A stretch of 64,000 nucleotides of DNA, from assembly GCA_030867685.1 (NCBI GenBank), contig JAQOWU010000001.1, positions 992,001 through 1,056,000 of the forward strand, read 5' to 3'. The notes beneath the pieces were generated by a model that ran no database searches, was not told where the DNA came from, and saw only the letters and a list, made by a program, of their open reading frames with translations. Source of the DNA: Wickerhamiella versatilis (taxonomy: Eukaryota). Numbering within the stretch: position 1 is the stretch's first letter; each line of letters begins with the position of its first letter. Below, in pieces: positions 43,757 through 60,130 of the stretch. The position numbers and the translations under genes were made by a program.

Positions 43757-44284
43757 TTAGTGAAACGCTCTAGAGTCGGCTTTACCAATATATTCAGCTG
43801 TAAAATCATCAACTCTCTCGAGTATGAAAAAATAATGCTTTCCATCTTGAATAATCTCGGGAAGATTTGGTGTGGTCTTACCATTCATGACACCGAAAAG
43901 AGTGTCATTATCTACCTTTCGTAAATGGTCAAAAACAGGAACGCCGTCGTAAACCATGGTTCCTGAAACCTTTCCTCTGAACTCAACCATCCATAATGAG
44001 GCCTCGCCATCGAATTGTGTATCAGAAAATAGCTTATTGTCATCATTTAAGCACATCAATGGACGTGCATCGAGTTGACTTGCATACCACTTACCGACCC
44101 ACCTCATATCCTTCAGGGAACGTCCAACCCAATGACCAACACAGTCGATACCAGTGCCCTTCCACTTACCAAGCATTTCTTCAACCGTCACTGGAGGTAA
44201 TTTATCATAAAATTCGAAAAGCTCCTCGTTGCCATCGAATGATTTTTTCTGAATTTCGTTCAATTCACCCCTGTAATTTGTCAT
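43757..44284 (-). CDS. GXWXG/DUF4334-domain protein
   Basis: FYDKLPPV..EMLGKWKG, WVGKWY, ASLWMVEFRGKVSGTMVYDGVPVFDHLRKVD and GVMNGK. Confidence 0.87.
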   Translation of the reverse strand: MTNYRGELNEIQKKSFDGNEELFEFYDKLPPVTVEEMLGKWKGTGIDCVGHWVGRSLKDMRWVGKWYASQLDARPLMCLNDDNKLFSDTQFDGEASLWMVEFRGKVSGTMVYDGVPVFDHLRKVDNDTLFGVMNGKTTPNLPEIIQDGKHYFFILERVDDFTAEYIGKADSRAFH

Positions 44285-45449
44285 GGTTTGCTTGCTAGGA
44301 TGACATGTGCTAATTATATATATAGGACTCTGATGAATAAGTTACTGACATTACTAACGTTATCTTGCGGGGCAATTTCTGCATAAGAATAATTACGAGG
44401 TATATCTCAAGTTCGGTCGACTGTTTACCATGACAGTCTCTTGAGGCTCACGTATTTGTAGCCAGGCCTCAATCTTTGCTTCGCTTACATGAAGGCCGCT
44501 CGATAATGTACTAGTCGTCGTCTTATATATGAACTGGTTTCGAGAATTGAGATAGACAACTTATTTAGCGTATAATCAATGCTGTTAGTTAGCGGTCTGC
44601 AATATAATTGATTATCTTAATAATTGCGGTTGTGCACTATGGACTCTTACCCTCGTTTACGATGACCAAGCCAATTTAGTAATGCTTTTTGAGTGCTTAA
44701 AAGGCCCTCCTTCCTGAGCAGTACAGATCCACATAGACCCATTAATGAATTTTACGAAAAGATTCAGGCTAACGAAAATCCAAATTTTCGGTCAAAGGAT
44801 ATTAATTTTGATGTAGGCCGACTCTATCTTCGTACCATCTGCCGTTGCAGGAAATAAACGTCCACTCCTGTGATAAGTGGTGGCATAAGCTTCAAATATA
44901 ATATAATTGAATACACAGCAGTGAAGCTGTTTTCATGATTTTACTCGCTGCTGGAATCTTATCGCTCTTCCTCCAGACAAATCATTGCTTCATAGGTACA
45001 AATTTACCAAAATAATCTTTGCACTGACATGCTACCATTGTTTGGATTGTCATCATGTTCAGCATGTTGTGAGTAAAGATGTCATTGCGATGAGGAGGTG
45101 GCAAGGGCTTGGATATATGACACTATATTTCAGGCACCCGGTCAGTTGGGTTTCTGATAAAAGATCGACTTTGATAAAAACTTGAGTAATGAGCGCACTT
45201 TCAGCCGTAGCTCTTCCATATCATAATCCAAGTTTAGAAGACTGATGGAGAAAAACTGTAAAGAGCGTCCGGGATATGACTTCTTTGAAAAATGATTTTT
45301 TAATGATTACGTGCAAATGAGTAATAAAATAGAGTGAAGTGAAGTATGTCATAGTTATCCATACCACCTATGCTAGTTCAAACAGATTATTTGATTCTTT
45401 GAATAATAAATGTCATTAAATGCTAATCGTTACGGGCATTTCATCAACA

Positions 45450-48074
45450 TTATTGCTCAGTGCCTATATCACGTAAAATTTGACGGAGATGAGGTCTTCT
45501 GAGTGGTTTACTGAGAAATTTGTTCATACCTGCTGCAATACAGCCATTGGCATTTGCTTCATCGGCAAATGCAGAAACAGCAACTATAGGACCCTCATAG
45601 TGCAGATCAGTGCGAATCCTTCTGGTGGCCTCATAGCCATCCATATTAGGCATCTGGACATCCATAAATACAATGTCAAACGAAGAATCAGTCATATGTT
45701 CTTGGACCTTAGTCAAAGCTTCGACACCATCACTAGCGACTTCAATATTTTCGATGCCGTCCATTTTGAGCATTCGTTTCATGACTTCTTGGTTAACCTT
45801 GTTGTCATCGACGACGAGAACCTTGAGACTGGATGGTGGCAATTCAGAGCATACATTCGACATAGATTCATGAGACCCCTGTACTGAAGGCGACTTCGTA
45901 TTTCTTTCCATGTCTACCTTATTTACTGGAGGATCCGATAAGCTTAAAGGACGTAAACATACCTTTTGCTCTTCTGCGATCATAGTTGTAACAATAGGAA
46001 TTTTGAATATGAACAAGGAGCCCCTGCCTAGTTCGCTTTTCACTTGGATTGTTCCACCCATTTTTTCGGCGAGATGACGACAAATGTAGAGGCCAAGCCC
46101 TGCTCCCTCCCTATGAGCGATTTTTTCACGTGTCCCAACCTCACCCTGGAAAAATTCATCGAAAATCTTTCGCTGCAATTCTGTATCGATACCAGGACCT
46201 GTATCCTCAATCTCAAAGGTAAAATCACGAATATCCCAATTACTGGGTGTCATTTTAACCCTGAAAAATAATTTCCCACCTTGTGGCGTGAACTTTAGCC
46301 CATTAGACATGAGATTGAAGATGACCTGTAATATACGGTTTGTGTCTCCATGAAGAACAACCCATTGAGTTGCTGGGTCTATGTCAAATGATAGCTGGAT
46401 ATCTTTAAGGCCGCACTGTTCGGTGAATATGGCGTTGAGTTGGTTTCTAATATCAGAGACAGTGAATTCGCGCATCTCAAGAGTAATGCTTTCGTCTTCA
46501 GTTTGATTGAACGACAGCAGGTCTGTAATTAAATGCAACAGTAGATCACTGCACTTGAATATTGTCCTCAAAGATTCGTGAATTTGATCAGCATCATCAT
46601 CACCAAGACATAACGTTGCCGTACCCAATATACCATTAAGGGGTGTGCGCAGTTCATGAGTAACTCGAGCGAGAAAATGGGATTTCGCATCATTTGCATT
46701 ATTTGCAGCTATCCGAGCCGCCTCAATTTCCTCGTTACGCTGGTATACGCGCTTCTCGAGATGTGAATATTGTAATGCAAGACTATCGTTCATTTCATTA
46801 AATTGTTGAGCAATATCATCCAGTTCATCTCTCAAGTGTGGGCGGAAGGGCACATATTCAGGAACCTGGCCTTCAGAATCACAATCAGTATTTGAAACTT
46901 GGCAAGCACTATCTGGCAAAATCCACCACGGAATTATGAGCCACTGGCGAGTTGCCGGTTTTTCATGCATGGTCGCCATTTTCAATCGGCGTATTTGCCG
47001 CGATCCAAGACTCGCCATGATAAATGTAAATAAGAGCATCCCTCCTACAATAGAAAACACCGTTATAAGAATAAGATTGCGCAGCGTAGCTGGCATGGCA
47101 TTATATCCCTTGGAATGTTGGTAAAGTACCACAAAATAATCCTCTGTTGTACTTACTCGTGACACGCTAACTAGAAGCTTACCTTCACCTTCAGAGGCAT
47201 CGACAAACTCTGCACTTAAATATGGATTGGACTCCGATATATTTTTTGCTTGCTCCTGGCCAATAGACACGTTGGTCTCTGGGAAAATTCCTATTAAGCC
47301 ACCCGTGCCACTCTGCCTCTTACAAAGGATTGCTGTATCGATGTAGGTGTGTGAATAATTTGAGGTTTGACTTTCCAGTTGACGTACTATTGCCTCCGCA
47401 GTAAAAAATATAGTCATAAACCCAATAGTGGGTACCTGTTTTTCTGGTTCATCCAAAGACACCAGTCCGTTTTTAGTGAGGGCCAAGCTGATACTGAACA
47501 GTTCATTAATAGCATCCTTACCAGGAACCAAAGCACTATCTTCAAGATAGGGTCCTTCTACAATTTGTTTGGCTATACTAAACTTCTCCTTTGTTTTATT
47601 TTTTTCCCAGGAGTTTAGTCCAGACAGAGGCCGTAGCCGTGTGCTGTTTATAGATGGGTTCAAATAACGGGACTGAATAGCAGCGATTTCTTCTAAGTTT
47701 TCATCAAACAGCTGAAGGAGAAGGGCTCGATTCACATTGAATGTTTCAAATAGTTTTTGGTCCTGTTCGAGGACAAATGCAGAATCTTGACTATTGGACA
47801 GAATCAACTGAACCTCATGACTCAGGGCGAAGAAATGTGCAATATTATTATGTTGACTGATAGTTTGAGCCACTCCATCGCTGCGCATTCGACAGTTAAT
47901 ATCAAGGTTAACTTTCTGCATATTGTGCACTGTATCCACACTAAGCACAAATAAAGCGGCAGCAAATGTGGCAAGGCATACCGCAGAAAAAATGAATATA
48001 GAGGACGTGATCTGAAACTGTATTCCGAGGTATGGCCTTGGTATGTGCATAGGCACGTCCACGTTCTTTTGCAC
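45450..48074 (-). CDS. SLN1: Membrane-bound hybrid histidine kinase, Sln1-type
   Basis: Two TM helices, HELRTPLNGI, NGLKFT, DTGPGI and GAGLGL, plus a receiver domain (VVDDN, FMDVQMPNMDG, KP). Orthologue versus paralogue status is not resolved. Confidence 0.85.
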   Translation of the reverse strand: MQKNVDVPMHIPRPYLGIQFQITSSIFIFSAVCLATFAAALFVLSVDTVHNMQKVNLDINCRMRSDGVAQTISQHNNIAHFFALSHEVQLILSNSQDSAFVLEQDQKLFETFNVNRALLLQLFDENLEEIAAIQSRYLNPSINSTRLRPLSGLNSWEKNKTKEKFSIAKQIVEGPYLEDSALVPGKDAINELFSISLALTKNGLVSLDEPEKQVPTIGFMTIFFTAEAIVRQLESQTSNYSHTYIDTAILCKRQSGTGGLIGIFPETNVSIGQEQAKNISESNPYLSAEFVDASEGEGKLLVSVSRVSTTEDYFVVLYQHSKGYNAMPATLRNLILITVFSIVGGMLLFTFIMASLGSRQIRRLKMATMHEKPATRQWLIIPWWILPDSACQVSNTDCDSEGQVPEYVPFRPHLRDELDDIAQQFNEMNDSLALQYSHLEKRVYQRNEEIEAARIAANNANDAKSHFLARVTHELRTPLNGILGTATLCLGDDDADQIHESLRTIFKCSDLLLHLITDLLSFNQTEDESITLEMREFTVSDIRNQLNAIFTEQCGLKDIQLSFDIDPATQWVVLHGDTNRILQVIFNLMSNGLKFTPQGGKLFFRVKMTPSNWDIRDFTFEIEDTGPGIDTELQRKIFDEFFQGEVGTREKIAHREGAGLGLYICRHLAEKMGGTIQVKSELGRGSLFIFKIPIVTTMIAEEQKVCLRPLSLSDPPVNKVDMERNTKSPSVQGSHESMSNVCSELPPSSLKVLVVDDNKVNQEVMKRMLKMDGIENIEVASDGVEALTKVQEHMTDSSFDIVFMDVQMPNMDGYEATRRIRTDLHYEGPIVAVSAFADEANANGCIAAGMNKFLSKPLRRPHLRQILRDIGTEQ

Positions 48075-49162
48075 GATTACTTAATGTTGAGACAATCAAC
48101 TAATTCGCTACGTGAGACTCTCTCAAGCATATACCATATAGCCGCTTCTGGAATTCATACTCCTGAAATACTGAAGTGGTTATTCCATTGCCATATATTT
48201 TCACATCACTATATACAAATTGCATGGATGACGCGTAGGCAATAGGCATCGGGGGTGATTATTTGTGAAGAAATGATGACTAGCATACTTCAATAAGGAT
48301 CCTAAAGTCTCAACATAGGAGGGAAGGAATATGTACAGGCCGCTTTCGATTGCCAAGAATATACGTAACTTGTGGCTTGTACTATCATTAGCCTAGCTTG
48401 CTCATCGAGTTCAATATTAAGCAATAAGACATTTAAGATTCCAAAAAAATTGAACTGAACTACACGATTCAACTCTAAGTCTATATTATTGATGCACAAA
48501 ATAAAACATTTGTTTCGCAGGCCCTAACAGCGGATAAAAAATTTATAAGCTGTGAAGTAAGACCGGAGACGTCATATGATATTAAAATCTCGGATTATTA
48601 TTAATGTTGCATTAACGATACTTTCTGCCATATGAAATAAAAAATGAATGTCGGACTTTTCATGTTTAACGTACTAGCAAGCTACAATAAGAAGTTTTTT
48701 TATGACACGATAGAAGCTTTTTTTGTGGACGGTCGGCCCGAATTCGCTCATTCGCTGCTACTAATTCCATTCACCAATTTATAAGTGAATGAGAACACTA
48801 TGATTTATCACGGGTGAATTAAATATGCTGTGATGCCTTCAAACCCTACAATGCCTGTAACCTCCGGTTGCGCCCTGCAGACAATGTATTTATATCGAAA
48901 CAAGAGTAAATCTTAATAGTGCCAAAGAATTCAGGCTACCGAACCTATCACCTAATTTCAAGATTAAGCGACATACCACCGCCTAAGCTGTTCGGACAAG
49001 ATACATGAAAAAAACTACGGCATGGTATCATTCACACAGTCGTTGTATTCAGTAACGGTAAACCATATGTTTGATTGATAGTTGTTCGCAACCCTTTTAT
49101 GGTATAAATATATATTGGCCATTATTGAGCTCGTATAGATAAAAAAAAAGGAGTGAAGATAC

Positions 49163-50718
49163 CTATTCACCAAGGACTGAATTCACGTCGTACCCCTCGT
49201 CAGAAAGCAGATTTCGAAATTTAGCGTCCTGCTCCGCTGCTGATTGCTGGGTTAATTCTGGGAGGAGCAGTGAGATTACCGCTGAAAATAAGCAAAGTGA
49301 GGATGAGATGTAAAACAAAACTGAAATGCCCGTGTCACTGTCGACACCTCCGTATCGTCTAGCGATAGCTGGAAATGTATAGGATCCCGCCAAAGCTCCT
49401 GCCTTGCCCATAGCAGCAGCAAAGCCATAGCCACGGCCCCTGATTGGAGTAGGGACTGCCTTAGAGGCAATTAAAATAGTGTTGTCACCTGGTCCAGCCT
49501 CACCGAGTGCCGTAAAAATACCATAAACAACCACAAATGCACCTACGCTACTTCGTAGGCTGGGAAAGTATACCGCAGTTATAAATCCAATAATTCCCTG
49601 AAGGACTAAGCAGATCGTCAGCGTAAGTCGGGGTCCAAGCCAGTCTGCCGAGACCCCGCCAAGAAAAGTACCAGGTAGATAGAAAAAGTTGAATAAGATC
49701 GTCCAAGCAAAGGACTTGCGAATATCGGACTTACCATCGTCTGTTGTGGCAAGTGCACTGAGAATAAAAGGGTAATAAGCCCCCAGGAGTACGACAATGC
49801 ATCGTAAATGAACCATATCAGGGACACCAGGCCAATGGAGCCGCCCCAATGCTTGATCATCATACCATAGGGCTGCTTTACGCGACGCATAGAATTCGAT
49901 CGGAAATCGCGTGATTCTTGAAGCTTTACCCTCATCAACAGTAGAATGAAGGAGGGTACGGCACCGAGGCCTAATTGGAGTCGCCAAGCAGTTTGCATAC
50001 CGTGATCTGAACCTGCGGACGGAACACCACAGATGTACAACAATACCAATGCGACTATGCTTGATACAAAAAACCCAGTGTCCAAGGCGCTGCAAGTGGT
50101 CCAAATTACCCAGCGGTGGCGCGAACCAGCTTTGAATCGTGAGCTAGCCTCGGTGCACGCTGCTGAGCCACATGGGTATTCTCCGCCAATACCTACGCCT
50201 AAAAAGACACGCCACACTGATAGAGCTGCGAACATCCCTGCAGGATTCGTGGGCATGCCCAATCCCCATGATCCAGCGGCAAGAACAGAAAATAGTATTA
50301 GCATCAATGTGCACACAATTAGACCGGTCTTGCGGCCAATATGGTCAGACAGGAATCCAAATGTGAGCATCCCGACAATTGCTCCGGCATATCCAAGACC
50401 ACCAATATTTGACATAGCTACGTTTTTATCAAACGAAGAATCCCCATAGATAGTGGACAAAAACTGGGTCACAAAGCCTATACTATTGTTTAAGTACCCG
50501 TCGCTGAATAGCCCTGTTCCAGTTGCTATTACTTGCCAGTATCGTGAATGTTTCTCTTCCTCACCTTGGTTCTCGTAGTCATCCAAAGTCGAACTTGTGA
50601 TAATTTCATTGTGCTTCTCAATTGAGCTGGAATCGGCGGCATATTCCTTAATAGAGGACGTACCCATCCAGCTTGGAGGGTGTGCCTCTCTACGTAGCAT
50701 TTCAAGATAACGTTGCAT
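49163..50718 (-). pseudogene. GIT1/PHO84-family MFS (glycerophosphodiester/phosphate) transporter with a 1-nt frameshift at 49780-49784
   Basis: The N-terminal half (GLFSDGYLNN, SDHIGRK, GIGGEYP) and C-terminal half (FYLPGT, GEAGPGDN, PTPIRG, AAMGKAG) are in different frames. One extra G in the G5 run joins them as YSWG-AYYPF. This could be a homopolymer sequencing error. Confidence 0.85.
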
Positions 50719-50799
50719 ATCTCCTTATTTCGAAAAGCTATGCTAAATGGATTTTAGATCCACCAATTTATTATACCTTTTCTGCACGCATTTCTCTTC

Positions 50800-50871
50800 C
50801 CACGTGCTGCTGACATTATAAGTTCTACTTATACCTCATTATTACCTGGGTGTCAATCAATAAGCACGTGG
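50800..50871. promoter_or_regulatory. Two inverted Pho4-type boxes (AGCACGTGG)
   Basis: CCACGTGCT at 50800-50808 and AGCACGTGG at 50863-50871, in the divergent transporter/lysR promoter. Confidence 0.7.
50817..50833. promoter_or_regulatory. Candidate LysR operator, copy 1
   Basis: TATAAG-TTCTA-CTTATA: perfect 6-bp arms around a T-N11-A core. Confidence 0.65.
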
Positions 50872-50979
50872 TTACAGTGTCACGCAGGGATACATTTGAA
50901 ATTGATTACGTACTTCTTGTCATATTCCCCTACCCTTTTGGCAAGTCGCTCTAATCAGTCGTGCTGTCTCTATGTATGA

Positions 50980-51897
50980 ATGGGAGTTTCTCACACACAA
51001 CTTAAAGCATTCCATAGTGTTGCTTTGACAAAGTCATTTACTCGTGCAGCCCATTCACTCGGGATGTCGCAGCCTGCTGTCTCTGAACAGGTCCGCAAGA
51101 TGGAGGAACAATACGCTGTGCAGCTCTTCACACGATCCCATCGTACCATTTCTCTAACTCGAAAAGGCGAACAGCTTTTCCAACTAACTAGTAAGCTATT
51201 CTCAATGGAAGCTGATATCCAAGAATTATTGCAAGCAGGTGACTCTAAAAAATCTTTGACACTGGCTGTCGACTCCCCACGACATCTATCCGCATTTCTC
51301 GCTCTTTTTTGTCAGCTCTATCCCACAATTGAAGTTTCCTTGATTACAGGAAACTCTGAACAGAATCTGACTCGTCTTCTGTCCAGTGAAGCAGATGTTG
51401 CTGTGGTGGGTCGCAATCTTGAGACATCCAATCAGCAGAATCCCCAAATTGAGTCAATAGTCTTGAATGTTGCACCGATACTTTTGATGTGTGGAAGAAG
51501 TCACCCTTGGAGTCAACGAGTGAATGCCTCAAAAGCGGTAAGTATTAGAGAGCTTCGGGGTCAGACACTAGTTATGCGTGAGCGCGGATCGGCCACCCGA
51601 AAGCTTGTTGAGAATACCCTAGAAGCCCATAATATCGATGTTAGGTCAGTCATTGAGACCACTGGGCGTGAAGCTGACAATGACCTAGTGGCAGATGACC
51701 TAGGGGTTGGGTTTGTGTCTGCTGCTGAAAGTTATAGCGATATACGTATTGTGCTACTACAGTTGTATGATGCAGAAATAATTATGTATGAACGTCTAGT
51801 TTGGTTGAAGGAGAATACTAACAGCTGTACTGATTTGTTCGTGCAGCTAATTCAGGATGAGCGTTCCACATTATATTCTGATGGTTGGGTTTCTTAA
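50980..51897 (+). CDS. Bacterial LysR-type transcriptional regulator, AEP-catabolism-associated type
   Basis: Winged HTH (QLKAFHSVA..SFTRAAHSLGMSQPAVSEQVRKME) and substrate-binding domain (LAVDSP, TGNS, MRERGSATR, LGVGFVS). The N-terminus resembles the Pseudomonas LysR found beside phnWX, from memory. Confidence 0.93.
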   Translation: MGVSHTQLKAFHSVALTKSFTRAAHSLGMSQPAVSEQVRKMEEQYAVQLFTRSHRTISLTRKGEQLFQLTSKLFSMEADIQELLQAGDSKKSLTLAVDSPRHLSAFLALFCQLYPTIEVSLITGNSEQNLTRLLSSEADVAVVGRNLETSNQQNPQIESIVLNVAPILLMCGRSHPWSQRVNASKAVSIRELRGQTLVMRERGSATRKLVENTLEAHNIDVRSVIETTGREADNDLVADDLGVGFVSAAESYSDIRIVLLQLYDAEIIMYERLVWLKENTNSCTDLFVQLIQDERSTLYSDGWVS

Positions 51898-51912
51898 TTC
51901 AATTACTCACTA

Positions 51913-52718
51913 TTAACATAGTCCCTCAGGTGATTGACCTGCTGCCAGGCACTCATTTATTTCTTCAATAATATTCGGCAGTTCTGCTACGGTGTTAACG
52001 TAGAAATGGGGACGTGAAGACTTAAGGTGCTTCTTCACGTGTAAACAGGCCCGATTCTGCTGCTCCTTATCAAGAGCATCCCACTGACTTAGTGTCATTC
52101 CCATATTGTTACTGAACCCGAGAACTGCTACTGTCCACATTCCGGCATGTCTGCCCTCAAGAATACCAGGTGCAGTGTCATCCACTTTGACACAAGCGGA
52201 GACGTCCTCAACGTTAAGCTTAATGACGTTGAGTAATGCTTGCGCTGGCCATGGTCGTCCACGTGGTACATCATCACTTGCGACCCAGTAGTCTGGTTTA
52301 TATCCAGCTGCCGCTGATAAGTTGACCACGCGCTCCATTGCGGCTCGAGGGTATCCTGAGCATGTTCCAATTTTTATGTTGTGGGACTTTAACCAAGAAA
52401 CTGTCTCCAGAGTTCCGGGTATTAATTTTGAGTAGTCTGCTATGGTCTCGATCTGTAAAGGCAAGAACCGACTGTATACTGAGAGCCAAATTTCTTCTCC
52501 CACCTTTCTCTGATGGTGTCATCGGCTAGAAGAGCCCGAATATGATCAATTTTAGCCATACCCATAGGTCCGCGTGCTTCCACGAGGGAAATCTCAATTC
52601 CGACAGCTGCAAAAGCATCCACAAACACTTGTGTGGGGGCAAAACAACCAAAATCTATCGTACTACCAGCCCAATCAAAAATTACGGCCTCTAAAGCCTT
52701 TGTTTTAATGTATTTCAT
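51913..52718 (-). pseudogene. phnX: Phosphonoacetaldehyde hydrolase (phosphonatase), frameshifted near 52485
   Basis: 5' part from ATG 52718: IFDWAGSTIDFGCFAP and EARGPMGMAK (Schiff-base Lys). 3' part, in another frame: RFLPLQI, CSGYP, GRPWPAQAL and VKVDDTAPGILEGRHAGMWTV. Confidence 0.93.
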
Positions 52719-52774
52719 TATGTGCACTAATCTAGCTATGATATATATGGGTATATATATGCATCTGAGCTTAC

Positions 52775-52791
52775 TATAGGCTGAACTTATA
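52775..52791. promoter_or_regulatory. Candidate LysR operator, copy 2
   Basis: TATAGG-CTGAA-CTTATA. Confidence 0.7.
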
Positions 52792-52823
52792 CGTATGCAA
52801 GTAACCTCGCGTTCATCTGTAAG

Positions 52824-52840
52824 CATAAGCTCAGCCTATA
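52824..52840. promoter_or_regulatory. Candidate LysR operator, copy 3 (inverted relative to copy 2)
   Basis: CATAAG-CTCAG-CCTATA. Its reverse complement, TATAGGCTGAGCTTATG, matches copy 2 at 15/17 positions. Confidence 0.7.
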
Positions 52841-52930
52841 CTAGTTGATAATCCCCTTACCCAGTATTTTTAAAAGATACTGAACAATCCTAATCTTATT
52901 TAACTGCGATAAATCAGGAAAGAGGTCTTT

Positions 52931-54025
52931 ATGACGATTCTTCTAACTCCCGGCCCGCTCACGACCTCCCGGCAAACGCGAGATGCCATGATGGTCGATT
53001 GGGGTTCAAGAGATAGCGATTTCACAGGCATGTGCGCGACTATCTGTAAACAGCTGATCGACATTATCAATGGCGAGAAAACGCACGTATGCGTACCACT
53101 TCAAGGTAGTGGGACGTTTGCGGTCGAGGCTGCTTTGGGTACACTGGTTTCGCCCAAGGGCGATGCCATTCTAATCCTCAGTAACGGTGCTTATGGTAGG
53201 CGTATGAAACAGATATGTGACAAAATATGCCGCAAAAGTTTTATTATTGAATGGCCAGAAAGCGAAGTCACAGACCCGACAACTGTCGATAGCTATTTGA
53301 CGTCCCACCCTGAAGCGACCCATGTCGCTCTGGTACACTGTGAGACAAGCGTAGGTATCATGAATCCATTACATCAAATTGCGAAAGTGGTAGAAAAACA
53401 CAAAAAAAAGCTGATTGTTGATGCAATGAGCTCTCTGGGGGCTCTTCCGATAGACGTAACGGCTCACCCAGCAATTATTGCGGTAATAGCCGCTAGCGGA
53501 AAATGTCTCGAAGGAGTTCCAGGGATGGCATTTGTGCTCGTAAATAGGCTGAACCTGCTTAATTGTAAAGATAACGCTCATTCTATTGTACTCGATCTCT
53601 ACGATCAGTTTGTGGTAATGGAAAGAACTGGACAGTGGCGCTTCACCCCACCGACGCATGTCGTCGCTGCGTTGCATTCGGCCTTGTCTCAGTTCATTTC
53701 TGAAGGTGGTCAAAAAGCTAGGTTGGCTCGATACCAGCGCAACATGGATACTTTAAGCAGTGGGCTCGATTCTCTCGGCATCAAACGCTATTTGCGTAAT
53801 GAGAACCAAGCACCAATTATCATGACATGCTACACCCCAATTAGCAACACCTGGGACTTCAACAAGTTCTACAATCTTACTCGCTCCAAAGGCTTTGCCC
53901 TCTACCCTGGAAACCTGACGGCGGCCAGTACCTTCCGTGTTGGTTGTATTGGTGATGTTCAGCCTGAAGACTTGGAAGCCGCCGTCGATGCCATACGTGC
54001 TTCATTGAATGAATTGGGTATCTAG
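52931..54025 (+). CDS. phnW: 2-aminoethylphosphonate:pyruvate transaminase
   Basis: ILLTPGPLTTS, LQGSGTFAVEA, NGAYG, HCETS, DAMSS, SGKCLEGVPG (PLP Lys), QWRFTPPTHVV and FRVGCIG; adjacent to phnX. Confidence 0.96.
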   Translation: MTILLTPGPLTTSRQTRDAMMVDWGSRDSDFTGMCATICKQLIDIINGEKTHVCVPLQGSGTFAVEAALGTLVSPKGDAILILSNGAYGRRMKQICDKICRKSFIIEWPESEVTDPTTVDSYLTSHPEATHVALVHCETSVGIMNPLHQIAKVVEKHKKKLIVDAMSSLGALPIDVTAHPAIIAVIAASGKCLEGVPGMAFVLVNRLNLLNCKDNAHSIVLDLYDQFVVMERTGQWRFTPPTHVVAALHSALSQFISEGGQKARLARYQRNMDTLSSGLDSLGIKRYLRNENQAPIIMTCYTPISNTWDFNKFYNLTRSKGFALYPGNLTAASTFRVGCIGDVQPEDLEAAVDAIRASLNELGI

Positions 54026-54268
54026 AGTAACACAAGACAGCTCTATATTATATACAGGAGATTGCAATATATGCATATAAATTAATACAATATAATGCGA
54101 TCTGAAGCTAGAAAGGTGTGCTACAGTGCTGCTTGTACTCATATCTAATGTTTTATAGTAAGACAATTAAATTGTGGTACCGCTTAGCGTAAGCACGATA
54201 TAACCCTTGCCCAAATGGCGGAACTATTTAATGTATAAGTGGTTAGACTCTTTGTAGACCCAACACCA

Positions 54269-55246
54269 ATGCAGAAAAGCGATATGACGTCGATTACTAC
54301 AAAAGAAGACAATCAACCTCTGGAGCGAAGTCCAAGCGAAAAGCATTCAACTGAGATTGGAAGTCCAAACACGCTAACTATTTCTAGCAATTCCAGTTCA
54401 AACGAACAGGATATCAAGAATTTGGGGGATCCAATGAATGCACTCTCCCTTGCTGATAGCTCAGAAAATTCGGATGATGAAGATCCTGAAGAACTTGATA
54501 ATCTGGAGAAGTGGCATGAAGCGATGCTCCACCGTGCCGCGTGGAAAGAGTGGGTTCAAGAAATGTGGGAGGAAATTTTTGAGGAAGAGATATCGGAGGA
54601 TGAGGAAGAGTCATCGCACGTAGAAAGAGATTATGAAAACAGATCTCACGAAACTCCAGAGCCCAGGGGGCCATCAGCAGGTATTGCCGAATACGAGCGG
54701 GTACGCATGGCCGATGGAAGTACCAAAATGGTAAAGGACTTAGTTAGGGGCGACTTTGTCATGGGTCCCCATGGTAATCCTGTGGAGGTTAAAGATGTGA
54801 AAAGAGGATATAGTCAGCTCTACGAAGTATCTGTTCCAAATGATAATGGAATCGGAAGGCGAAAGGTAGCAGTCGGTGCTAGACAGCCATTTAAGCTATC
54901 AATTGAGCAGTGCAATTTACGACCCGTTCATGTTTTGGCTCAAGGAAACAACAAGCCCCGGTACGAGGTGACTTACCGTAGCCTTACTCGAGAAAGAGTA
55001 GAGGCCGGGAAAGGTGATTTTCGCCAGGTCACAAAGGTGCATGAGACTACTATATTTGAGTCATATGACTCTAAAACTTCTCATATACTGGCGTCTACCC
55101 CAGAAGAGGCGAAATATCGGCTATGTAAAAAGCTTTATGCCAATCTACCCAGAGATACTAATGGTAAGATATGTACCAGACTTCAGTGGATAGCTGAGGC
55201 ACGTGACTTAAATCTTCATAAACCCCCTTGCATGATCCACATGTAG
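54269..55246 (+). CDS. Truncated free-standing VDE/HO-like intein (Hint) domain protein with an acidic N-terminus
   Basis: GIAEYERVRMADGSTKMVKDLVRGDFVMGPHGNPVEV...RGYSQLYEV resembles the N-terminus of the VMA1 intein and HO. LQWIAEARDL resembles VDE FEWTIEARDL. The ORF stops before any LAGLIDADG motif. Confidence 0.78.
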   Translation: MQKSDMTSITTKEDNQPLERSPSEKHSTEIGSPNTLTISSNSSSNEQDIKNLGDPMNALSLADSSENSDDEDPEELDNLEKWHEAMLHRAAWKEWVQEMWEEIFEEEISEDEEESSHVERDYENRSHETPEPRGPSAGIAEYERVRMADGSTKMVKDLVRGDFVMGPHGNPVEVKDVKRGYSQLYEVSVPNDNGIGRRKVAVGARQPFKLSIEQCNLRPVHVLAQGNNKPRYEVTYRSLTRERVEAGKGDFRQVTKVHETTIFESYDSKTSHILASTPEEAKYRLCKKLYANLPRDTNGKICTRLQWIAEARDLNLHKPPCMIHM

Positions 55247-55615
55247 CTAGTAGCACTTTGATAGTATTTGTTTTTAGGAATAAATATCTGGCATATACCA
55301 CGGTGGACTGTATGCGACCACACAAATAATGTAAATTACCACTGTGAATACTTGGTCCCGCTTATCAGGACCTGACACTCTATTGACTGATGAAAACAGT
55401 ACTATCGTATCAGATACCAGCTAATATAGCCTCCATATGATATTTCATGGTCAGGCAATATAGAACTACCCAATATATTACGACGTAGATATCAGATTGC
55501 TTCTATTAATCAGCATGATTTCATATCTCTCCATAAGAAGTGCCTTAAGTAAAGTGAGACCACTGAGATTAGATAACGAGAAGAAAGTGGGAAAGAGTTT
55601 TTGCTAGTCGGAACA

Positions 55616-57415
55616 ATGACCTCAGGGTTAAGGGGTTACAGGTCTAGAAGGTGTCGACCATGTGACTCGTGTCGAGCCAAGAAGACATATTGCCATTTGG
55701 ATGGAGCACCACCCTGTCGGTTGTGTCGCCAGCAGAATCGACAATGCACATTCGTCTTTGGGCCCATTCGGAAGACGACAAGGCAAAAAATCAAGTCAAT
55801 TAGGAATGAAGAAATCCCGGAAGTGCCAGGAAATCCATTCGCCCTCGAATTATGTCCTCCTACAGCTGATAGCTCATTGCAGGATATCCTTACAGCAAGA
55901 ATTCCAGATACTGGGATATCTAATCTAGAACTTCAAGCACAATCGGCATTTATTCATCCAGAAGATAAATTGTCCCTTTCAAAGAAACCTAATAAGTCAC
56001 ATCAGTTGTGCGGGTGGACTGGAGAATCATGTCCGCACCTCCTTGGATGCTACAGCTACGATGATGTGGATGAACATAAGTTCAATAAAGTTTCATTTCG
56101 CAAAATTAGTGAAAATCCCCCTGTTTACTTTATGTTAACAGATAAAGAATTAACGAGGAGTCTTTTCGGCGACGAACGTGACCAGAATAAACTACTGAGA
56201 GCTCAGCTCGAACAATTAGTGCCTTTTGAAGAAGGAAGGCATTTTGTACAACTATTTTTCAGATATGTTCATCCATCAATTCCTGTGCTATGCCAAACAG
56301 CTACACTCGAGGATCTATACTCCATCCCGACCGGTATACTAGCTGCAATGTATTTATTAGCGCTTCCTTTCACACTTTTTGAGCCCAAAATAGCATCACA
56401 CTCATATTCTGCTTATCAACCGCCTTCGAGTAAAGAACTTTTTGATATAGGCTGCAGGTGTTATAATCTTCAGTCTCACACTCCAGATATATCTACAGCT
56501 CAGATTGCATTATTATTGCTACAAACAGAGCCACTATATCCATATTTTTCCGACACTGCTTTCATTTCGCAGTTTGTCTCTTCCCTATACTCTATATCAC
56601 AAACGCTTGGGTTAAACGTTGATTGCTCCGGATGGAATATACCAGCCTGGGAGAAAAAAATCCGTAAAAGGGTATGGTGGTCTGTATATTGTACAGAAAA
56701 ATGGCAGTCTTTCGTATGTGGCAGATCTAGTCACATAAATGATGATGACTGGGATATTGCAATGTTCACAAAAGACGACTTTGAAACACCTCTAAACTAT
56801 CACTTTTTAATTTTGTGCTCACTATCATTAATATTATCAGACTCTCTTTGCCAGATGTATTCCTTGCGCGCAGTGAAGAAAAGACTTGTTGATGTTGAAG
56901 GCAGTCTTCAATTAACTAAGGATTTAATTGCTCGAGTTCGCAACCTTTACCGCACTTTCGAGCCTCACATTCAGATGGATCATGTAAAACCTGCAACTTT
57001 AACAGTTACTGGCTCATTATTTCTATGTTTTTTGGGACTTGAGCTGGCGCTTGTCAAGTCATATGTTGAAATCTCAAGTTATGATATTGACAATAAGTGT
57101 ACTGCAACTCCAAAATATATGGCAACAAAATTACTCAACTTCATGAGAAGTCTAAAAGTTGAGCACACAAAAGCATTCTGGTATTCATGGTGTCATCAAA
57201 TATTTTCATCGGCCAGCAGTTTTTTTGCTTTCTTTGCATTGTCTCCAACTTCATTAGATGCAGATTTTGATTTCAAATCTTCGCTAGATGATTGGAGATC
57301 GCTCTTACAGATTCATGCTGGTAGTTTTTCTCCTGTGCGCTTGGGGCTCGGTCGTCTGGATGGATGGGTTGGGTTAGAGAAGCTTTCAAGTTCTCCAGGG
57401 ACCTCCAATCATTAA
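55616..57415 (+). CDS. Zn(II)2Cys6 transcription factor, Dal81-like
   Basis: RPCDSCRAKKTYC...PCRLC...CTF, LFFRYVHPSIPVL, LGLNVDCSGWNIPAWEKKIRKRVWW and AFWYSW. Confidence 0.9.
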   Translation: MTSGLRGYRSRRCRPCDSCRAKKTYCHLDGAPPCRLCRQQNRQCTFVFGPIRKTTRQKIKSIRNEEIPEVPGNPFALELCPPTADSSLQDILTARIPDTGISNLELQAQSAFIHPEDKLSLSKKPNKSHQLCGWTGESCPHLLGCYSYDDVDEHKFNKVSFRKISENPPVYFMLTDKELTRSLFGDERDQNKLLRAQLEQLVPFEEGRHFVQLFFRYVHPSIPVLCQTATLEDLYSIPTGILAAMYLLALPFTLFEPKIASHSYSAYQPPSSKELFDIGCRCYNLQSHTPDISTAQIALLLLQTEPLYPYFSDTAFISQFVSSLYSISQTLGLNVDCSGWNIPAWEKKIRKRVWWSVYCTEKWQSFVCGRSSHINDDDWDIAMFTKDDFETPLNYHFLILCSLSLILSDSLCQMYSLRAVKKRLVDVEGSLQLTKDLIARVRNLYRTFEPHIQMDHVKPATLTVTGSLFLCFLGLELALVKSYVEISSYDIDNKCTATPKYMATKLLNFMRSLKVEHTKAFWYSWCHQIFSSASSFFAFFALSPTSLDADFDFKSSLDDWRSLLQIHAGSFSPVRLGLGRLDGWVGLEKLSSSPGTSNH

Positions 57416-58015
57416 ATAAATAGCATTTCAGAGATCCCTTTGATACTGTTTGTAACCCCATTCTGTCCCAAGGATGAAAGGTGCTATTTGCCAAATTAGC
57501 AGAAGTACTCCCTAGATTTCACATAGTTTACGAAACATTCTAGTTTTCTCACAATGAAAAGAAATATCAATACAAAAAGTAGTTGGAATCTAGCTGACCT
57601 ATACAGTCATTGGAGATCGCGAAATGAAGAATTTCTTTGGCTGTATTGGAGAGAGAATTGAAGCATTAATCTTTTCTGGTTCTTAGCATCCATCCCCCTT
57701 TGTTACCTAGACGGATACTGACTTGGCTGTAATCATCGTAATCATAAGGAATGAACTAAAATCTTATAATATTTCTAACTATCTAAATAGTGGTAACCTC
57801 GTTCAGACAAATGCCGCTACCAGGAGTGGAATAAATCTTCATTAAACTGAGCAATAAGATATTGGAATGCACCGCAAAGAATGTCTTGTTCCTCTATTTC
57901 TCTCGTAGCATATGCAAGAAGACCCATATGACTGATATCATGTATTTATAACAGTCATTTGAAGAGGGAAATAAACCCCCTATTTCTCGGGTAATGTACG
58001 CATTCTATTCCCGTA

Positions 58016-59818
58016 CTACGAATCAATGACGCCGGAATTCATTCGCTCCTCTTTAGCCACATTGTCATTTAGTTCCATATACTGTAATTCTCGTTTGTCA
58101 TAACCTTTAAAAATCATCCAAAAGAGAATAGCTACAATGAAAATTGATACACCCAAGCCAGCATATAACCACAGAATATCTGGGTTTTTGGAGACTGTGG
58201 AAAGCGCTATTCCAATGATCGCACCACCGGCATTGGTCAATAAGAATAGAGACATCACTATACTTTTCATACTTGCAGGCGAATGGTCGAAGGTTATTAT
58301 ATACCCACCAAGCGCACCCATCAAATCTGCAAAAGCTAAGAGTAGGTAACCAGGAGTTTGTATGGCAACATGGATGTGATTAGGTACCGCAGGGCCTAAA
58401 GAGCACCGAGAATCCGAAGGAAATTTGTAACAAGGCCCTCTTGAATATATAATTTTTTGTATTATCGCTGAGTAGACCATCGTTAACGAGCAAAAGAAAA
58501 ATCCAATCGATACTCGCGTTATCGGCAACATAGGAAACCCCAGCTTACGCAGTAATGGAAAGCCAAATTGATTCATCAGTGGAATCAAGATTATAACAGC
58601 AATAGGTTCAATATTCTGCATGATATCATTAGGAATAGCATGTGTTTCCATTTGTCCTGCTTGCGAGATAAGATTAGAGGTACCTTGATCGTAAGCTACC
58701 CAAAAAATTGGAAAAAATAGCAGTATTTTGCAACCATCAATAGCTCGAGCTACTTCATCAACGAACAGATCCGTCCAAGGTACGTCACTTAATCCCTGAC
58801 TAGCCCGCACAGAGGGCCTGGCTATATCAAGAGAAAACTTTGCTTTGAATCTTTTCCGCCATTGACGGAATCTCAGCGCATACGTAGTATTTTCGCTTTC
58901 GCATGACTCACTTGCATCGAATACATTCAAATTCTTGCATCTCGAATTATCGTGTGAGAGCCCTTTTTTGATTGCTAGATTTACGATCGAAAACGTATCT
59001 TTGAGTATGCCTGCCTTGGGCTCACGGTTCACGTATATTTTATGACCCGACAATACCGTTATAATAGCCACCGGAAACATTGCAAATGGCAAGAGATATG
59101 CGGCCCAGAAGTCAACGTACTTCTCAAGTTCTGGTGTGGCAATCGAAGACAAGGATCCTGAACAAATACATATATAGAATACTGAGAAAATATAACGTAC
59201 TGTTATAGCTGGATCTACTATTACCCGCTCACCGGATCTCAAAGTCTTGACATAGAGCTTGGTATTTTTGTATTGCTCGATAACCAATGTGCTGACGTTT
59301 GGCTTAATCCCTCCAGCGGCAAGACCTACTACCACCATGAACGCTATGAGGCCGCCTTCACCTGCTGTATCCATGTACTGGGGAAGCGAGGTTACAAACA
59401 GAATCATAATCCCCACTACGTACAGACAGGAGAAGGCTACAATGGTTCTGTATTTTCCCAACCATAAATCAGCAATTGCCGCACCAGCGAGTGGCGTCGC
59501 ATAACACCAAAACTTGAAGAAATTACTGAGAGCAGTAGCCTTGCTTTGTCCAAGACCAAGTCCACCAGTTTGCCTATCGTTTTCTCTCGGCAGTTGGATA
59601 TAGTTTTGGATTACAGCGTTCAACCCGTAAAACGTAAAACGTTCAGCAAACTCGCAGGCTGCAATTAGAAAAGGCCCTAAGTTTACCTTGTCACGAATTC
59701 TTCGCAGCTTGGCTAGTTCTTCATCTGAGGGATAAGGATACGCATCATCCACTGAGCCTATGCTAAGACTCCCAACTTCTTCACTTTCGCTTATTTGGAC
59801 TTTCTCGAGTTTCTGCAT
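58016..59818 (-). CDS. PTR2: POT-family di/tripeptide transporter
   Basis: EFAERFTFYG (ExxERF), GGIKPNVS, QAGQM and PASMKS; about 12 TM segments. Confidence 0.92.
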   Translation of the reverse strand: MQKLEKVQISESEEVGSLSIGSVDDAYPYPSDEELAKLRRIRDKVNLGPFLIAACEFAERFTFYGLNAVIQNYIQLPRENDRQTGGLGLGQSKATALSNFFKFWCYATPLAGAAIADLWLGKYRTIVAFSCLYVVGIMILFVTSLPQYMDTAGEGGLIAFMVVVGLAAGGIKPNVSTLVIEQYKNTKLYVKTLRSGERVIVDPAITVRYIFSVFYICICSGSLSSIATPELEKYVDFWAAYLLPFAMFPVAIITVLSGHKIYVNREPKAGILKDTFSIVNLAIKKGLSHDNSRCKNLNVFDASESCESENTTYALRFRQWRKRFKAKFSLDIARPSVRASQGLSDVPWTDLFVDEVARAIDGCKILLFFPIFWVAYDQGTSNLISQAGQMETHAIPNDIMQNIEPIAVIILIPLMNQFGFPLLRKLGFPMLPITRVSIGFFFCSLTMVYSAIIQKIIYSRGPCYKFPSDSRCSLGPAVPNHIHVAIQTPGYLLLAFADLMGALGGYIITFDHSPASMKSIVMSLFLLTNAGGAIIGIALSTVSKNPDILWLYAGLGVSIFIVAILFWMIFKGYDKRELQYMELNDNVAKEERMNSGVIDS

Positions 59819-60118
59819 AACAAATCACTTGCCACCTAGATGTATTCGCTCTGTTCTCCAAATATAATATAACTTATCTATTTGTCGCTGATAGCACGCT
59901 TATATCAGTAGGGGTAAGGGGGTTTCACTGACCGCAGGTCTCACTGCCCGACGAGCAGTGATTATTATATAACAAATTTCTAGATAGGCAAGTGCTGATA
60001 TTTATCGAAGGTGAAAATCACAAATAACATTCATAAATAAGTAAACCAGATAGTATTGAGAGTCTTAATGTCGCATTAGGTTCATAAGGCACGTGAATGG
60101 CGTTCATTAGATAATATA

Positions 60119-60130
60119 GGTCACGTGACC
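60119..60130. promoter_or_regulatory. Palindromic E-box GGTCACGTGACC (Cbf1/Tye7-type)
   Basis: 12-bp perfect palindrome in the divergent PTR2/amine oxidase promoter. Confidence 0.5.

Follow-up and report, generated by a model that had tools for sequence, protein, structure and literature searches.

The question raised by this locus is how genes for the bacterial breakdown of 2-aminoethylphosphonate (AEP) came to stand in a fungal chromosome, and whether they still work there. The reading that we favor, with a probability of roughly 0.8, is an old transfer of an AEP phosphonatase cluster from a bacterium to a yeast, in which the cluster was formerly under selection and has recently been inactivated in the lineage sequenced here.

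Within the window (the whole 64-kb stretch of DNA analyzed), four genes were confirmed between positions 49163 and 54025: a GIT1-type fungal permease of the MFS type (−), a phn-type lysR (+), phnX (−), and phnW (+). A first-pass annotation had described four tightly packed genes among fungal neighbors; the positions match, and the Pfam and NCBIfam assignments as well as the fungal flanks agree with it. The lysR and phnW genes are intact open reading frames, and the permease gene and phnX are each divided between two frames. The flanks encode a hybrid histidine kinase (45450–48074), a Zn2Cys6/Fungal_trans protein (55601–57415), PTR2 (58016–59818), and, farther out, a PDR5/CDR1-type ABC transporter, an ATG26-like glucosyltransferase, and an aspartyl protease, all of them fungal. 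The open reading frames of the window are dense and intron-free, and the contigs of the isolate run add up to about 9.4 Mb; together with the gene content, these features point to a yeast host.

The phnW gene (2-aminoethylphosphonate:pyruvate transaminase; 52931–54025, +) encodes 364 amino acids and exceeded the cutoffs of both profiles (NF010006, 494.9 bits vs. 296; TIGR02326, 450.9 vs. 400.8). The protein aligned with the solved PhnW 7e7g (E 6.6e-124), including the lysine of the SGKCLEG motif, which we take to be the catalytic PLP lysine. Its identity was 100% to P0122, 98% to P0001, 94.8% to P0121, and at most 63% to all others, and phnW was identical or nearly so in the runs compared from four studies. 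The LysR regulator (50980–51897, +; 305 amino acids, HTH_1 and LysR_substrate domains) was best described by TIGR03339 (phn_lysR) with 254.3 bits, the second family reaching 138.7, but fell below the cutoff of 341.1. On the same model, the yeast copies scored 254–263, a copy from a related lineage (C, see below) 266.8, and the five gammaproteobacterial clade members 344–391. LysR was 95% identical to P0124, 65% to P0125, and at most 45% to named bacteria. Codon 233 specifies Asp in the window assembly (A at 51677) and Val in three of the four runs compared and in lineages B and C.

The phnX pseudogene (phosphonoacetaldehyde hydrolase; 51913–52718, −; start Met at 52718) is split into the frames 52440–52826 (TIGR01422 positions 2–74) and 51913–52503 (positions 79–251), with the break at 52468–52487. 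Set against the intact 276-aa protein P0521, the gene lacks one base and the codons of roughly QPTEEDAQ(N), a loss of approximately 25 nt as judged from the proteins. This deletion and the substitutions P6T, T19S, and S210F account for all differences from the intact protein of lineage A2. The permease pseudogene (49163–50718, −) belongs to the GIT1/Pho84 family and consists of the overlapping frames 49163–50104 and 49618–50718. Its Pfam assignments were Sugar_tr/MFS_1, and its best NCBIfam model was TIGR00887, phosphate:H+ symporter. The frame shifts at about 49760–49776, where one base was lost in ACCC(C)TTTT relative to P0374, which reads through this site in tblastn with the sequence SYSWGLITPFILS. 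Both the phnX break and the 1-nt permease deletion were found in four of four public runs compared. These frame splits are real, because none of the four runs showed an indel over 44000–60000.

The fungal nature of the transporter, proposed earlier, was upheld: seven of the ten best representatives were named, and all seven were fungal, led by Eremothecium gossypii ADR197W (41% and 46% identity over the two frames, tblastn) and a Schizosaccharomyces japonicus glycerophosphodiester transporter (36–41%, tblastn). As the best named match reached 44% identity only, the permease is, judged by its sequence, a divergent paralogue within the fungal GIT1-type family.

In the trees of PhnW, PhnX, and LysR, the yeast clades (support 100) nested among Pseudomonadota, on stems of 0.9–1.4 changes per site, which agrees with the nesting within Proteobacteria anticipated by the first-pass annotation. 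The yeast LysR clade was placed inside the Pseudomonas/Halomonas phn-LysR clade (stem 1.4). All organism-named relatives of the three proteins were bacterial or metagenomic (22 of 22 named rows for PhnW), and the best matches beyond the own lineages did not exceed 63% (PhnW), 55% (PhnX), and 45% (LysR). Neither the GTDB genomes (one per species, 185,579 prokaryote species) nor the JGI metagenome contigs contained relatives above 55% for PhnX or 43% for LysR. In a careful PhnW tree, the yeast clade joined P0002/P0003/P0033 (99/95), and the nearest sampled PhnW relatives were two lineages and the rare accessory PhnW of Salmonella enterica. A clade of yeast and Pseudomonas PhnW was rejected by the AU test, the group having been chosen after a quick tree was seen. 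Thus, of the transfer from a Pseudomonas-like donor suggested earlier, the bacterial (Pseudomonadota) ancestry was retained on the basis of the trees, and the Pseudomonas-like donor was not. The sister groups were P0002 and P0003 for PhnW and P0250 for PhnX; a longest contig of 9694 for both P0003 and P0250 hints at one donor lineage. The GC3 of the cluster was 0.37–0.49, compared to 0.402 ± 0.025 in 17 fungal open reading frames, and bacterial loci with these genes had a GC content of 0.57–0.62. Since the cluster genes now carry the base composition of the host, the transfer was old. It presumably ran from bacterium to yeast and had a single origin.

A contaminant bacterial fragment fused to a yeast contig would fit the slightly higher GC of the cluster (0.44–0.48 vs. 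about 0.40 in the flanks) and the rarity of bacterial genes in yeasts. Single contigs of 59,436–59,438 nt from three studies (runs X1, X2, and X8; studies P1, P2, and P4), however, span 44000–60000 with two, three, and three substitutions, respectively, and no gaps relative to the window. These independent contigs cross both junctions between cluster and flanks without indels, which confirmed the contiguity singled out for checking in the first-pass annotation and ruled out a chimeric assembly; the differences among them argue against one mis-joined reference as common source. Run X9 provided gap-free pieces over both break sites. The stretch 48000–57500 was present at no less than half of its words in 16 of the 21 runs listed, and the 20 runs in which it occurs come from 10 studies. 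The host-like GC3, the lack of any bacterial sequence more than 63% identical in the collections searched, and the two pseudogenes fixed in all four runs also speak against an artefact, which we regard as extremely improbable. Equally improbable is the vertical inheritance of the phn genes as eukaryotic homologues. Some eukaryotes make or use AEP, and beyond this no support for such descent was found; LysR-type regulators and the TIGR01422 and NF010006 equivalogs are bacterial families, every organism-named relative is bacterial, and each of the three proteins lies inside bacterial diversity.

After the transfer, the cluster did not keep its bacterial order. In all 24 bacterial loci holding both genes, phnX follows phnW on the same strand, and neither the yeast order lysR (+), phnX (−), phnW (+) nor a head-to-head phnX–phnW junction occurred in any of them. 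The bacterial arrangement, with lysR divergent from phnW–phnX, was rearranged into two head-to-head pairs, permease with lysR and phnX with phnW, and therefore each gene has a separate upstream region. This order differs from that of a transferred operon.

The intergenic region between phnX and phnW (52719–52930, 212 bp) is AT/TATA-rich; it contains no CACGTG, and its palindromes are of the TATA type only. The region common to the permease gene and lysR (50719–50979, 261 bp) contains GCACGTGG twice, at 50800–50807 (−) and 50864–50871 (+), and this word occurs nowhere else in the window. For the whole window 0.61 such words were expected, and 11 of 100 shuffles reached two anywhere; plain CACGTG occurred 11 times. 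Boxes of the CACGTG type are bound by Pho4, a regulator of the PHO system. We read the two words as Pho4-type on the assumption that the host's own Pho4, whose motif preference may differ, recognizes them, and the permease–lysR promoter may accordingly be under PHO control through these candidate boxes.

Intact PhnX was found in three related lineages (P0521, 276 aa; P0244, 273 aa; P0245, 275 aa), with scores of approximately 335 bits, well over the cutoff of 220. In the alignment with a solved PhnX, an Asp and a Lys matched, presumably the catalytic residues. That A2, B, and C are yeasts with the genes lying together is deduced solely from equal longest contigs (2467, 85971, and 3563, respectively). 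Differences between lineages B and C avoided columns conserved in bacteria, both in PhnX (41 vs. 54.8 expected, P = 9e-5) and in LysR (9 vs. 23.6, P = 8e-6). The comparison of the window with B, a weaker test, gave 5 vs. 8.6 for PhnW (P = 0.07), 0 vs. 3.1 for LysR (P = 0.027), and 6 vs. 6.6 for PhnX (not significant). Because three related lineages keep an intact PhnX and substitutions avoid conserved columns, the cluster appears, from these sequence comparisons, to have been maintained by selection in the past. Polarized changes fell about 2:1 onto the window's branch (7:2, 6:3, and 6:3 for the three genes, each not significant). The pathway was probably switched off recently in the window lineage, the breaks being expected to abolish function. 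The use of phosphonates by this yeast, as first proposed, would consequently not apply to the window strain, given its deletions of about 25 nt in phnX and 1 nt in the permease gene. The window lineage is widespread across food-fermentation data.

Two further explanations concern these lineages. Lineage C (LysR P0125, PhnX P0245, one 3563-nt Logan contig) might belong to an unsampled bacterial donor lineage rather than to a yeast; the long stems and the unusual placing of lysR next to phnX would in that case be traits of the bacteria, and the stems would greatly overstate the age of the transfer. C is the sole relative between 55% and 93% identity, its GARP content lies between those of yeast and bacterial proteins, and its two intact proteins are under strong purifying selection relative to B, as in a working bacterial operon. 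We nevertheless consider this unlikely, since the prokaryote species and metagenomes searched yielded no relative above 55% (PhnX) or 43% (LysR), and no PhnW of 65–75% identity turned up among 8000 scored candidates. Furthermore, if a contig carried both lysR and phnX in full, arranged as is usual in bacteria, it would include a complete phnW, the LysR of C remains under the TIGR03339 cutoff like the yeast copies, and the host-like GC3 argues against a young transfer. Alternatively, the cluster could be alive in the window lineage, with PhnW alone retained for nitrogen scavenging without C–P cleavage, AEP entering by other permeases, and the losses of phnX and permease being a trimming, either neutral or adaptive, in food fermentations rich in phosphate. 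PhnW yields alanine without need for PhnX, and phnW is the best preserved of the genes, in its profile scores as in its constancy across studies; its changes between window and A2 are balanced (3:4) and those relative to B tend to avoid conserved columns. This avoidance is not significant, though, the 6:3 ratio for PhnW makes the window's branch twice that of B, as under relaxed constraint, and phosphonoacetaldehyde would build up, so that we hold this possibility to be doubtful.

Under the favored reading of an old transfer followed by recent inactivation, a proteobacterial set of phn-type LysR, phnW, and phnX would have entered a small-genome fungus, by inference a budding yeast, and been rearranged into head-to-head pairs adjoining the GIT1-family permease gene with its two candidate boxes. 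In the intact lineages, AEP would be taken up, possibly via the GIT1-like permease under phosphate starvation; PhnW would transfer its amino group onto pyruvate, giving L-alanine and phosphonoacetaldehyde, and PhnX would break the C–P bond of the latter to release acetaldehyde and phosphate. Both this chemistry in yeast and the role of the permease are predictions. In the window lineage, the pathway would be off, only phnW and lysR being left as open frames. A yeast phnWX cluster was not described in the full-text literature searched, in line with the remark of the first-pass annotation.

The closest known counterpart is the bacterial phnR(lysR)–phnW–phnX cluster. A Pseudomonas phnWX pair beside a LysR gene, mentioned in the earlier annotation, was indeed seen in Pseudomonas aeruginosa (plasmid pZYPA1927, locus L001), with lysR (−), phnW (+), and phnX (+). 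The same three gene families are adjacent in both systems, yeast PhnW and the intact PhnX relatives exceed curated equivalog cutoffs, and the presumed catalytic residues, the PLP lysine of PhnW and the Asp and Lys of PhnX, align with those of solved enzymes. In contrast, the yeast copy lies in a fungal chromosome in a different order, without an ABC-type AEP transporter and adjoining a fungal GIT1-type MFS permease; its proteins are 45–63% identical with long stems, LysR is under its cutoff, and phnX is broken in the window lineage.

Thiamine salvage genes have reportedly reached Wickerhamiella/Starmerella yeasts by horizontal operon transfer. The enterobactin siderophore operon was transferred horizontally into these yeasts, according to two reports (bioRxiv 10.1101/399394; PMC10690196). 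The likeness is that functionally linked bacterial genes were gained together by a budding yeast and stand clustered in a eukaryotic chromosome, and that a host gene joined them functionally or physically (PMC10690196). The phn cluster differs in serving phosphonate catabolism, in keeping a bacterial transcription factor gene as an open frame, in its head-to-head pairs, and in its decay in the window lineage. Likewise, bdelloid rotifers have foreign AEP-transaminase and phosphonoacetaldehyde-hydrolase transcripts, as stated in PMC3499245, and would thus share a horizontally acquired two-step AEP pathway (EC 2.6.1.37 and EC 3.11.1.1) in a eukaryote; the rotifer, however, is an animal, and its genes are known from transcripts. 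Finally, GIT1 is Pho4/PHO-regulated in four fungi (PMC5620639). The cluster permease resembles these GIT1/Tgp1 permeases in its 41–46% identity to ADR197W and its two CACGTG-type promoter boxes, and differs from them as a divergent paralogue that is frameshifted in the window lineage.

A horizontal transfer has most likely placed a bacterial cluster for the catabolism of 2-aminoethylphosphonate (AEP) in this yeast chromosome: its genes nest among bacterial homologues and are physically continuous with fungal genes. The first-pass annotation had reported four genes here, and ORF listing and profile searches bore out each of them and its position. They are a GIT1/Pho84-family MFS permease on the minus strand (49163–50104 and 49618–50718, in overlapping frames), a LysR gene of 305 aa on the plus strand (50980–51897), phnX, split over two minus-strand frames (51913–52503 and 52440–52826), and phnW, encoding 364 aa, on the plus strand (52931–54025).

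Close relatives of these proteins in public data belong to three lineages, A2, B, and C, within which gene linkage was inferred only from equal longest contigs (2467, 85,971, and 3563 nt, respectively). The PhnW of the window is identical to P0122, 98% identical to P0001 (A2), and 94.8% identical to P0121 (B). The LysR protein is 95% identical to P0124 (B) and 65% to P0125 (C), and all its other relatives are at 45% or below. Intact PhnX proteins are P0521 (276 aa, A2), P0244 (273 aa, B), and P0245 (275 aa, 69–71% identical, C).

The PhnW protein has the class-V aminotransferase fold (Pfam Aminotran_5) and scored above both equivalog cutoffs of the NCBIfam profiles (NF010006, 494.9 vs. 296; TIGR02326, 450.9 vs. 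400.8). It aligned over its full length with the solved PhnW 7e7g (E 6.6e-124), and the column of the SGKCLEG lysine, presumably the PLP Schiff-base residue, was identical. On the PhnX profile TIGR01422, the intact proteins P0521, P0244, and P0245 reached 335.6, 334.8, and 334.6 bits, respectively, against a cutoff of 220 bits. The window fragments reached 107.5 bits (positions 2–74) and 198.8 bits (positions 79–251) in different frames, and no single frame exceeded the cutoff. The Asp of DWAG and the Lys of KIDH, which we take to be the HAD nucleophile and the Schiff-base lysine, are present in the N-terminal window fragment and in P0244, and in the alignment they fall on Asp12 and Lys53 of the Bacillus enzyme as solved in chains 2iof/1rql.

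The LysR protein comprises an HTH_1 domain (PF00126, 74.7 bits) and a LysR substrate-binding domain (PF03466, 94.6 bits). Its best model was the AEP-catabolism-associated TIGR03339 (254.3 bits), more than 100 bits over any other LysR model. This score is below the cutoff of 341.1, as are those of lineages B (263.4) and C (266.8); 5/5 members of the gammaproteobacterial clade scored 344–391, and three more distant ones 274–327. For the permease, the phosphate:H+ symporter model TIGR00887 was the top model for each half, and two-frame tblastn alignments spanned nearly the whole protein. Seven of its best 10 representatives are named; all seven are fungal, with GIT1/Tgp1-type relatives closest, in agreement with the fungal GIT1 type proposed for this neighbouring transporter. 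The ESM Atlas returned only generic Pht1/Pho84-type clusters for the permease, which were uninformative on its origin.

The physical continuity of the locus was assessed in public sequencing runs. The interval 48000–57500 was present in 20/21 runs listed (10 studies), 16 of which contained at least half of the sampled words; the runs included an isolate (about 9.4 Mb of contigs) and food, food-fermentation, and sediment metagenomes. In three runs from three studies, 44000–60000 was spanned by one contig of 59,436–59,438 nt with 2, 3, and 3 substitutions and no gaps, and a fourth run gave gap-free pieces over both break sites described below. Insertions or deletions across 44000–60000 were not reported in any of these four aligned runs. 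As each spanning contig has its own SNPs, they are not simply the window's own assembly. The gap-free contigs and the lack of indels in every run indicate that the fungal–bacterial junctions and both frame breaks are real, and an assembly artefact was rejected on this evidence. Contiguity across the cluster and its fungal flanks, the check proposed with the first-pass annotation, is thus established in three independent studies. The nearly equal length of the spanning contigs (runs X1, X2, and X8) suggests that they end at repeats common to all strains.

The rest of the window is fungal and includes a PDR5/CDR1-type ABC transporter, an ATG26-like sterol glucosyltransferase, two Zn2Cys6 factors, PTR2, an aspartyl protease, and amino-acid and purine permeases. 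A tRNA scan of the 64-kb window found none. A hybrid histidine kinase of 874 aa with HisKA, HATPase_c, and receiver domains, termed Sln1-type in the first-pass annotation, is encoded on the minus strand at 45450–48074, and a 175-aa GXWXG/DUF4334 protein (43757–44284, minus strand) lies between it and the aspartyl protease. Directly downstream of phnW, a 335-aa ORF (54239–55246, plus strand) with an acidic, Ser-rich N-terminus carries a Hom_end-associated Hint domain (Pfam, 38.9 bits) and a weak PI-SceI match (E 0.004). No endonuclease domain was detected in this ORF, which could be the remnant of a homing element of the HO/VDE type bordering the foreign block.

All organism-named matches for PhnW, PhnX, and LysR were bacterial or metagenomic, with no eukaryotic sequences among them other than the yeast clade itself. 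Outside their own lineages, the best matches reached 62–63% for PhnW (P0003 and P0002, the latter a rare Salmonella enterica sequence with two member sequences), 55% for PhnX, and 45% for LysR. In maximum-likelihood trees, each yeast clade (support 100) fell within Pseudomonadota on a stem of 0.9–1.4 changes per site, which upholds the bacterial origin claimed for the phn genes. The sister of the yeast PhnW was P0002 plus P0003 (88/80), inside a 99/95 clade that also contains P0033; that of the yeast PhnX was P0250 (support 87). LysR, in a tree rooted with five other LysR proteins, fell within the Pseudomonas/Halomonas phn-LysR clade. P0003 and P0250 have sister supports of 85–88 and share a longest contig of 9694, a match from which their linkage was inferred. 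This is a hint that phnW and phnX had a common donor lineage; no LysR partner to P0003/P0250 was identified.

A Pseudomonas-like donor, as first proposed, was not supported, because an AU test rejected the grouping of yeast PhnW with Pseudomonas (p=1.6e-62; the Pseudomonas group was named after a quick tree had been seen). On these phylogenies, the donor is an unsampled proteobacterium. A scan of GTDB for PhnW gave 35 pattern matches and no relative. For PhnX, an alignment of lineages B and C was used as query against 185,579 prokaryote species (one genome each); none of the best 80 of 389 relatives, mostly from Achromobacter and Bordetella, was more than 55% identical, in a set that is a biased sample since it was chosen by the shared word LEAVIFDW. 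The LysR alignment gave 22 loci in JGI metagenomes (best 43%), and PhnW gave 314 records among 72,556 plasmids, all below 60%. For 66/80 of the GTDB loci, mostly from Achromobacter and Bordetella, a class-V phnW was absent from the 6 kb around phnX, and 22 of them carry a LysR-like gene about 3 kb upstream. These bacteria may pair PhnX with another aminotransferase.

Two genes of the cluster are broken in the window. In phnX, the reading ...RERWEKKFGSQ ends in one frame and ...VYSRFLPLQ picks up in another. Intact relatives read FGSQPTEEDAQNVYSRF at this site, so that about 25 nt (about eight codons and one base) are missing at 52468–52487. Apart from this deletion, the window PhnX differs from the intact A2 protein only by P6T, T19S (adjoining the DWAG catalytic motif), and S210F; the inactivation therefore appears recent. 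The permease frame shifts at about 49760–49776, leaving no intact 12-helix ORF, and this break was found in 4/4 runs. P0374, a related 209-aa Logan fragment (longest contig 80,604) with 74% and 63% identity to the two frames of the window permease, crosses the frameshift site and reads SYSWGLITPFILS there, where the window permease has one base fewer in the run. Since P0374 has an internal Met start and unrelated residues at its end, decay of the permease may extend to a further lineage. With both phnX and the permease frame-broken, the full pathway is predicted not to be functional in the window strain. Of the first-pass interpretation, the bacterial origin therefore stands, but neither the Pseudomonas donor nor a working pathway in this strain does.

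Selection was explored at the protein level by asking whether columns at least 90% conserved in bacteria carry fewer inter-lineage differences than expected. Between lineages B and C, 41 PhnX differences lay in conserved columns, with 54.8 expected (P=9e-5), and 9 LysR differences, with 23.6 expected (P=8e-6). Between the window and lineage B, the comparison gave 0 of 12 for LysR (3.1 expected, P=0.027), 5 for PhnW (8.6 expected, P=0.07), and 6 for PhnX (6.6 expected, not significant). Outgroup-polarised changes on the window branch and the B branch were 7:2 for PhnX, 6:3 for LysR, and 6:3 for PhnW, each alone not significant. These protein patterns fit long-term selection and are only suggestive of recent relaxed constraint in the window lineage. 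Codon 233 of lysR reads Asp in the window (A at 51677) and Val (T) in runs X1, X2, and X8 and in a minority of X9. As this codon is also Val in lineages B and C, it is the window-type lysR allele that has changed, at a conserved hydrophobic position.

The arrangement of the genes differs from that of bacteria. P. aeruginosa has lysR(−) phnW(+) phnX(+). Among 103 bacterial loci retrieved, 24 contained both phnW and phnX, and in 24/24 the order on a single strand was phnW, then phnX. The lysR and phnX of the window are convergent and 15 bp apart, phnX and phnW are head-to-head across 212 AT/TATA-rich bases, and lysR and the permease are head-to-head across 261 bases. The changed layout therefore gives each gene an upstream region of its own, as is necessary in a eukaryote. 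The composition of the cluster is close to that of the host, with a GC3 of 0.37–0.49 compared to 0.402 ± 0.025 in 17 fungal ORFs of the window; bacterial loci with phn genes have a GC of 0.57–0.62. Slightly GC3-rich are phnW (z=3.5) and the N-terminal part of the permease (z=3.1), and the remaining parts of the cluster are host-like. The reading of this enrichment as a sign of co-transfer of the permease was rejected.

The PHO activator Pho4 recognizes CACGTG-type boxes. Within the window, GCACGTGG words occur only twice, both times in the permease–lysR intergenic region, with 0.61 expected over the whole 64 kb. For S. cerevisiae, C. glabrata, C. albicans, and C. neoformans, the available part of one study describes GIT1 genes as targets of Pho4 (PMC5620639). 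A search of the two intergenic regions for an LTTR-type (T-N11-A) box gave none that was convincing, just CACGTG and TATA-type palindromes. Elsewhere in the window, two CACGTG boxes lie 32 bp apart at 60090–60127, between PTR2 (minus strand) and a flavin amine oxidase gene (plus strand), which form a second head-to-head pair with such boxes.

In the intact lineages, AEP would enter the cell, the candidate importer being the GIT1-like permease under PHO control. The predicted PhnW would transaminate pyruvate with AEP as the amino donor, yielding alanine and phosphonoacetaldehyde, and the predicted PhnX would release phosphate and acetaldehyde, to be taken up by yeast metabolism. In the window lineage, the PhnX step would be broken, and the entry step too if the GIT1-like permease is the importer. 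The most that could remain there is nitrogen release by PhnW alone, which we consider rather unlikely. The LysR-type regulator might still function in its eukaryotic host and would then be a candidate AEP-sensing switch for the phnX/phnW head-to-head pair; we regard this as quite doubtful. The lysR gene itself is head-to-head with the PHO-box promoter. If the LysR reading were true, a prokaryotic one-component regulator would have been wired into the phosphate-starvation circuit of a yeast.

How old the transfer is depends on the nature of lineage C. If C were a bacterium marking the donor lineage, the transfer would be younger; were it a second yeast, the transfer would be old, and lysR would have remained an open frame under purifying selection while the proteins diverged by about 35% within yeasts. 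The amino-acid composition of lineage C is intermediate and does not separate the two. A bacterium is nevertheless the less probable identity and, in our estimation, an improbable one: the collections searched held no bacterial relatives close to C, and a full-length, 65–75% identical PhnW, which a contig in bacterial order would have to encode, was not found. Moreover, the LysR of lineage C scores as far under the TIGR03339 cutoff as the yeast copies.

Public data thus hold intact phnX alleles of the A2, B, and C types together with a widespread food-fermentation lineage in which phnX and the permease are broken. This natural allele contrast provides a ready comparison for asking whether C–P cleavage of AEP is within reach of a yeast and why this capacity disappeared.

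The first-pass annotation knew of no described yeast phnWX cluster, and full-text literature searches likewise yielded no yeast phnW/phnX/LysR cluster; supplementary tables of yeast HGT surveys may list the genes. The available portion of the main text of a 2026 xenologue survey of the Wickerhamiella/Starmerella clade contains none of the terms 'phosphon', 'LysR', and 'aminotransferase' (PMC13376923). Whole bacterial pathway transfers into yeasts are few, and each shows how operon genes come to work in a eukaryote. Thiamine salvage genes are one such case. Operon-scale transfers into yeasts are described in the accessible parts of two reports, for example that of a siderophore operon (bioRxiv 10.1101/399394; PMC10690196). 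A eukaryotic precedent for the enzymes themselves comes, in the part of the paper available, from bdelloid rotifers, in which AEP transaminase and phosphonatase transcripts of foreign origin are expressed (PMC3499245). To these the present cluster adds a phosphorus- and nitrogen-scavenging pathway in which bidirectional promoter pairs have taken the place of the operon order and which adjoins a PHO-type permease of the host. It goes beyond ordinary cases in that a bacterial regulator gene is retained, which is unusual, and in that natural intact and broken alleles coexist.
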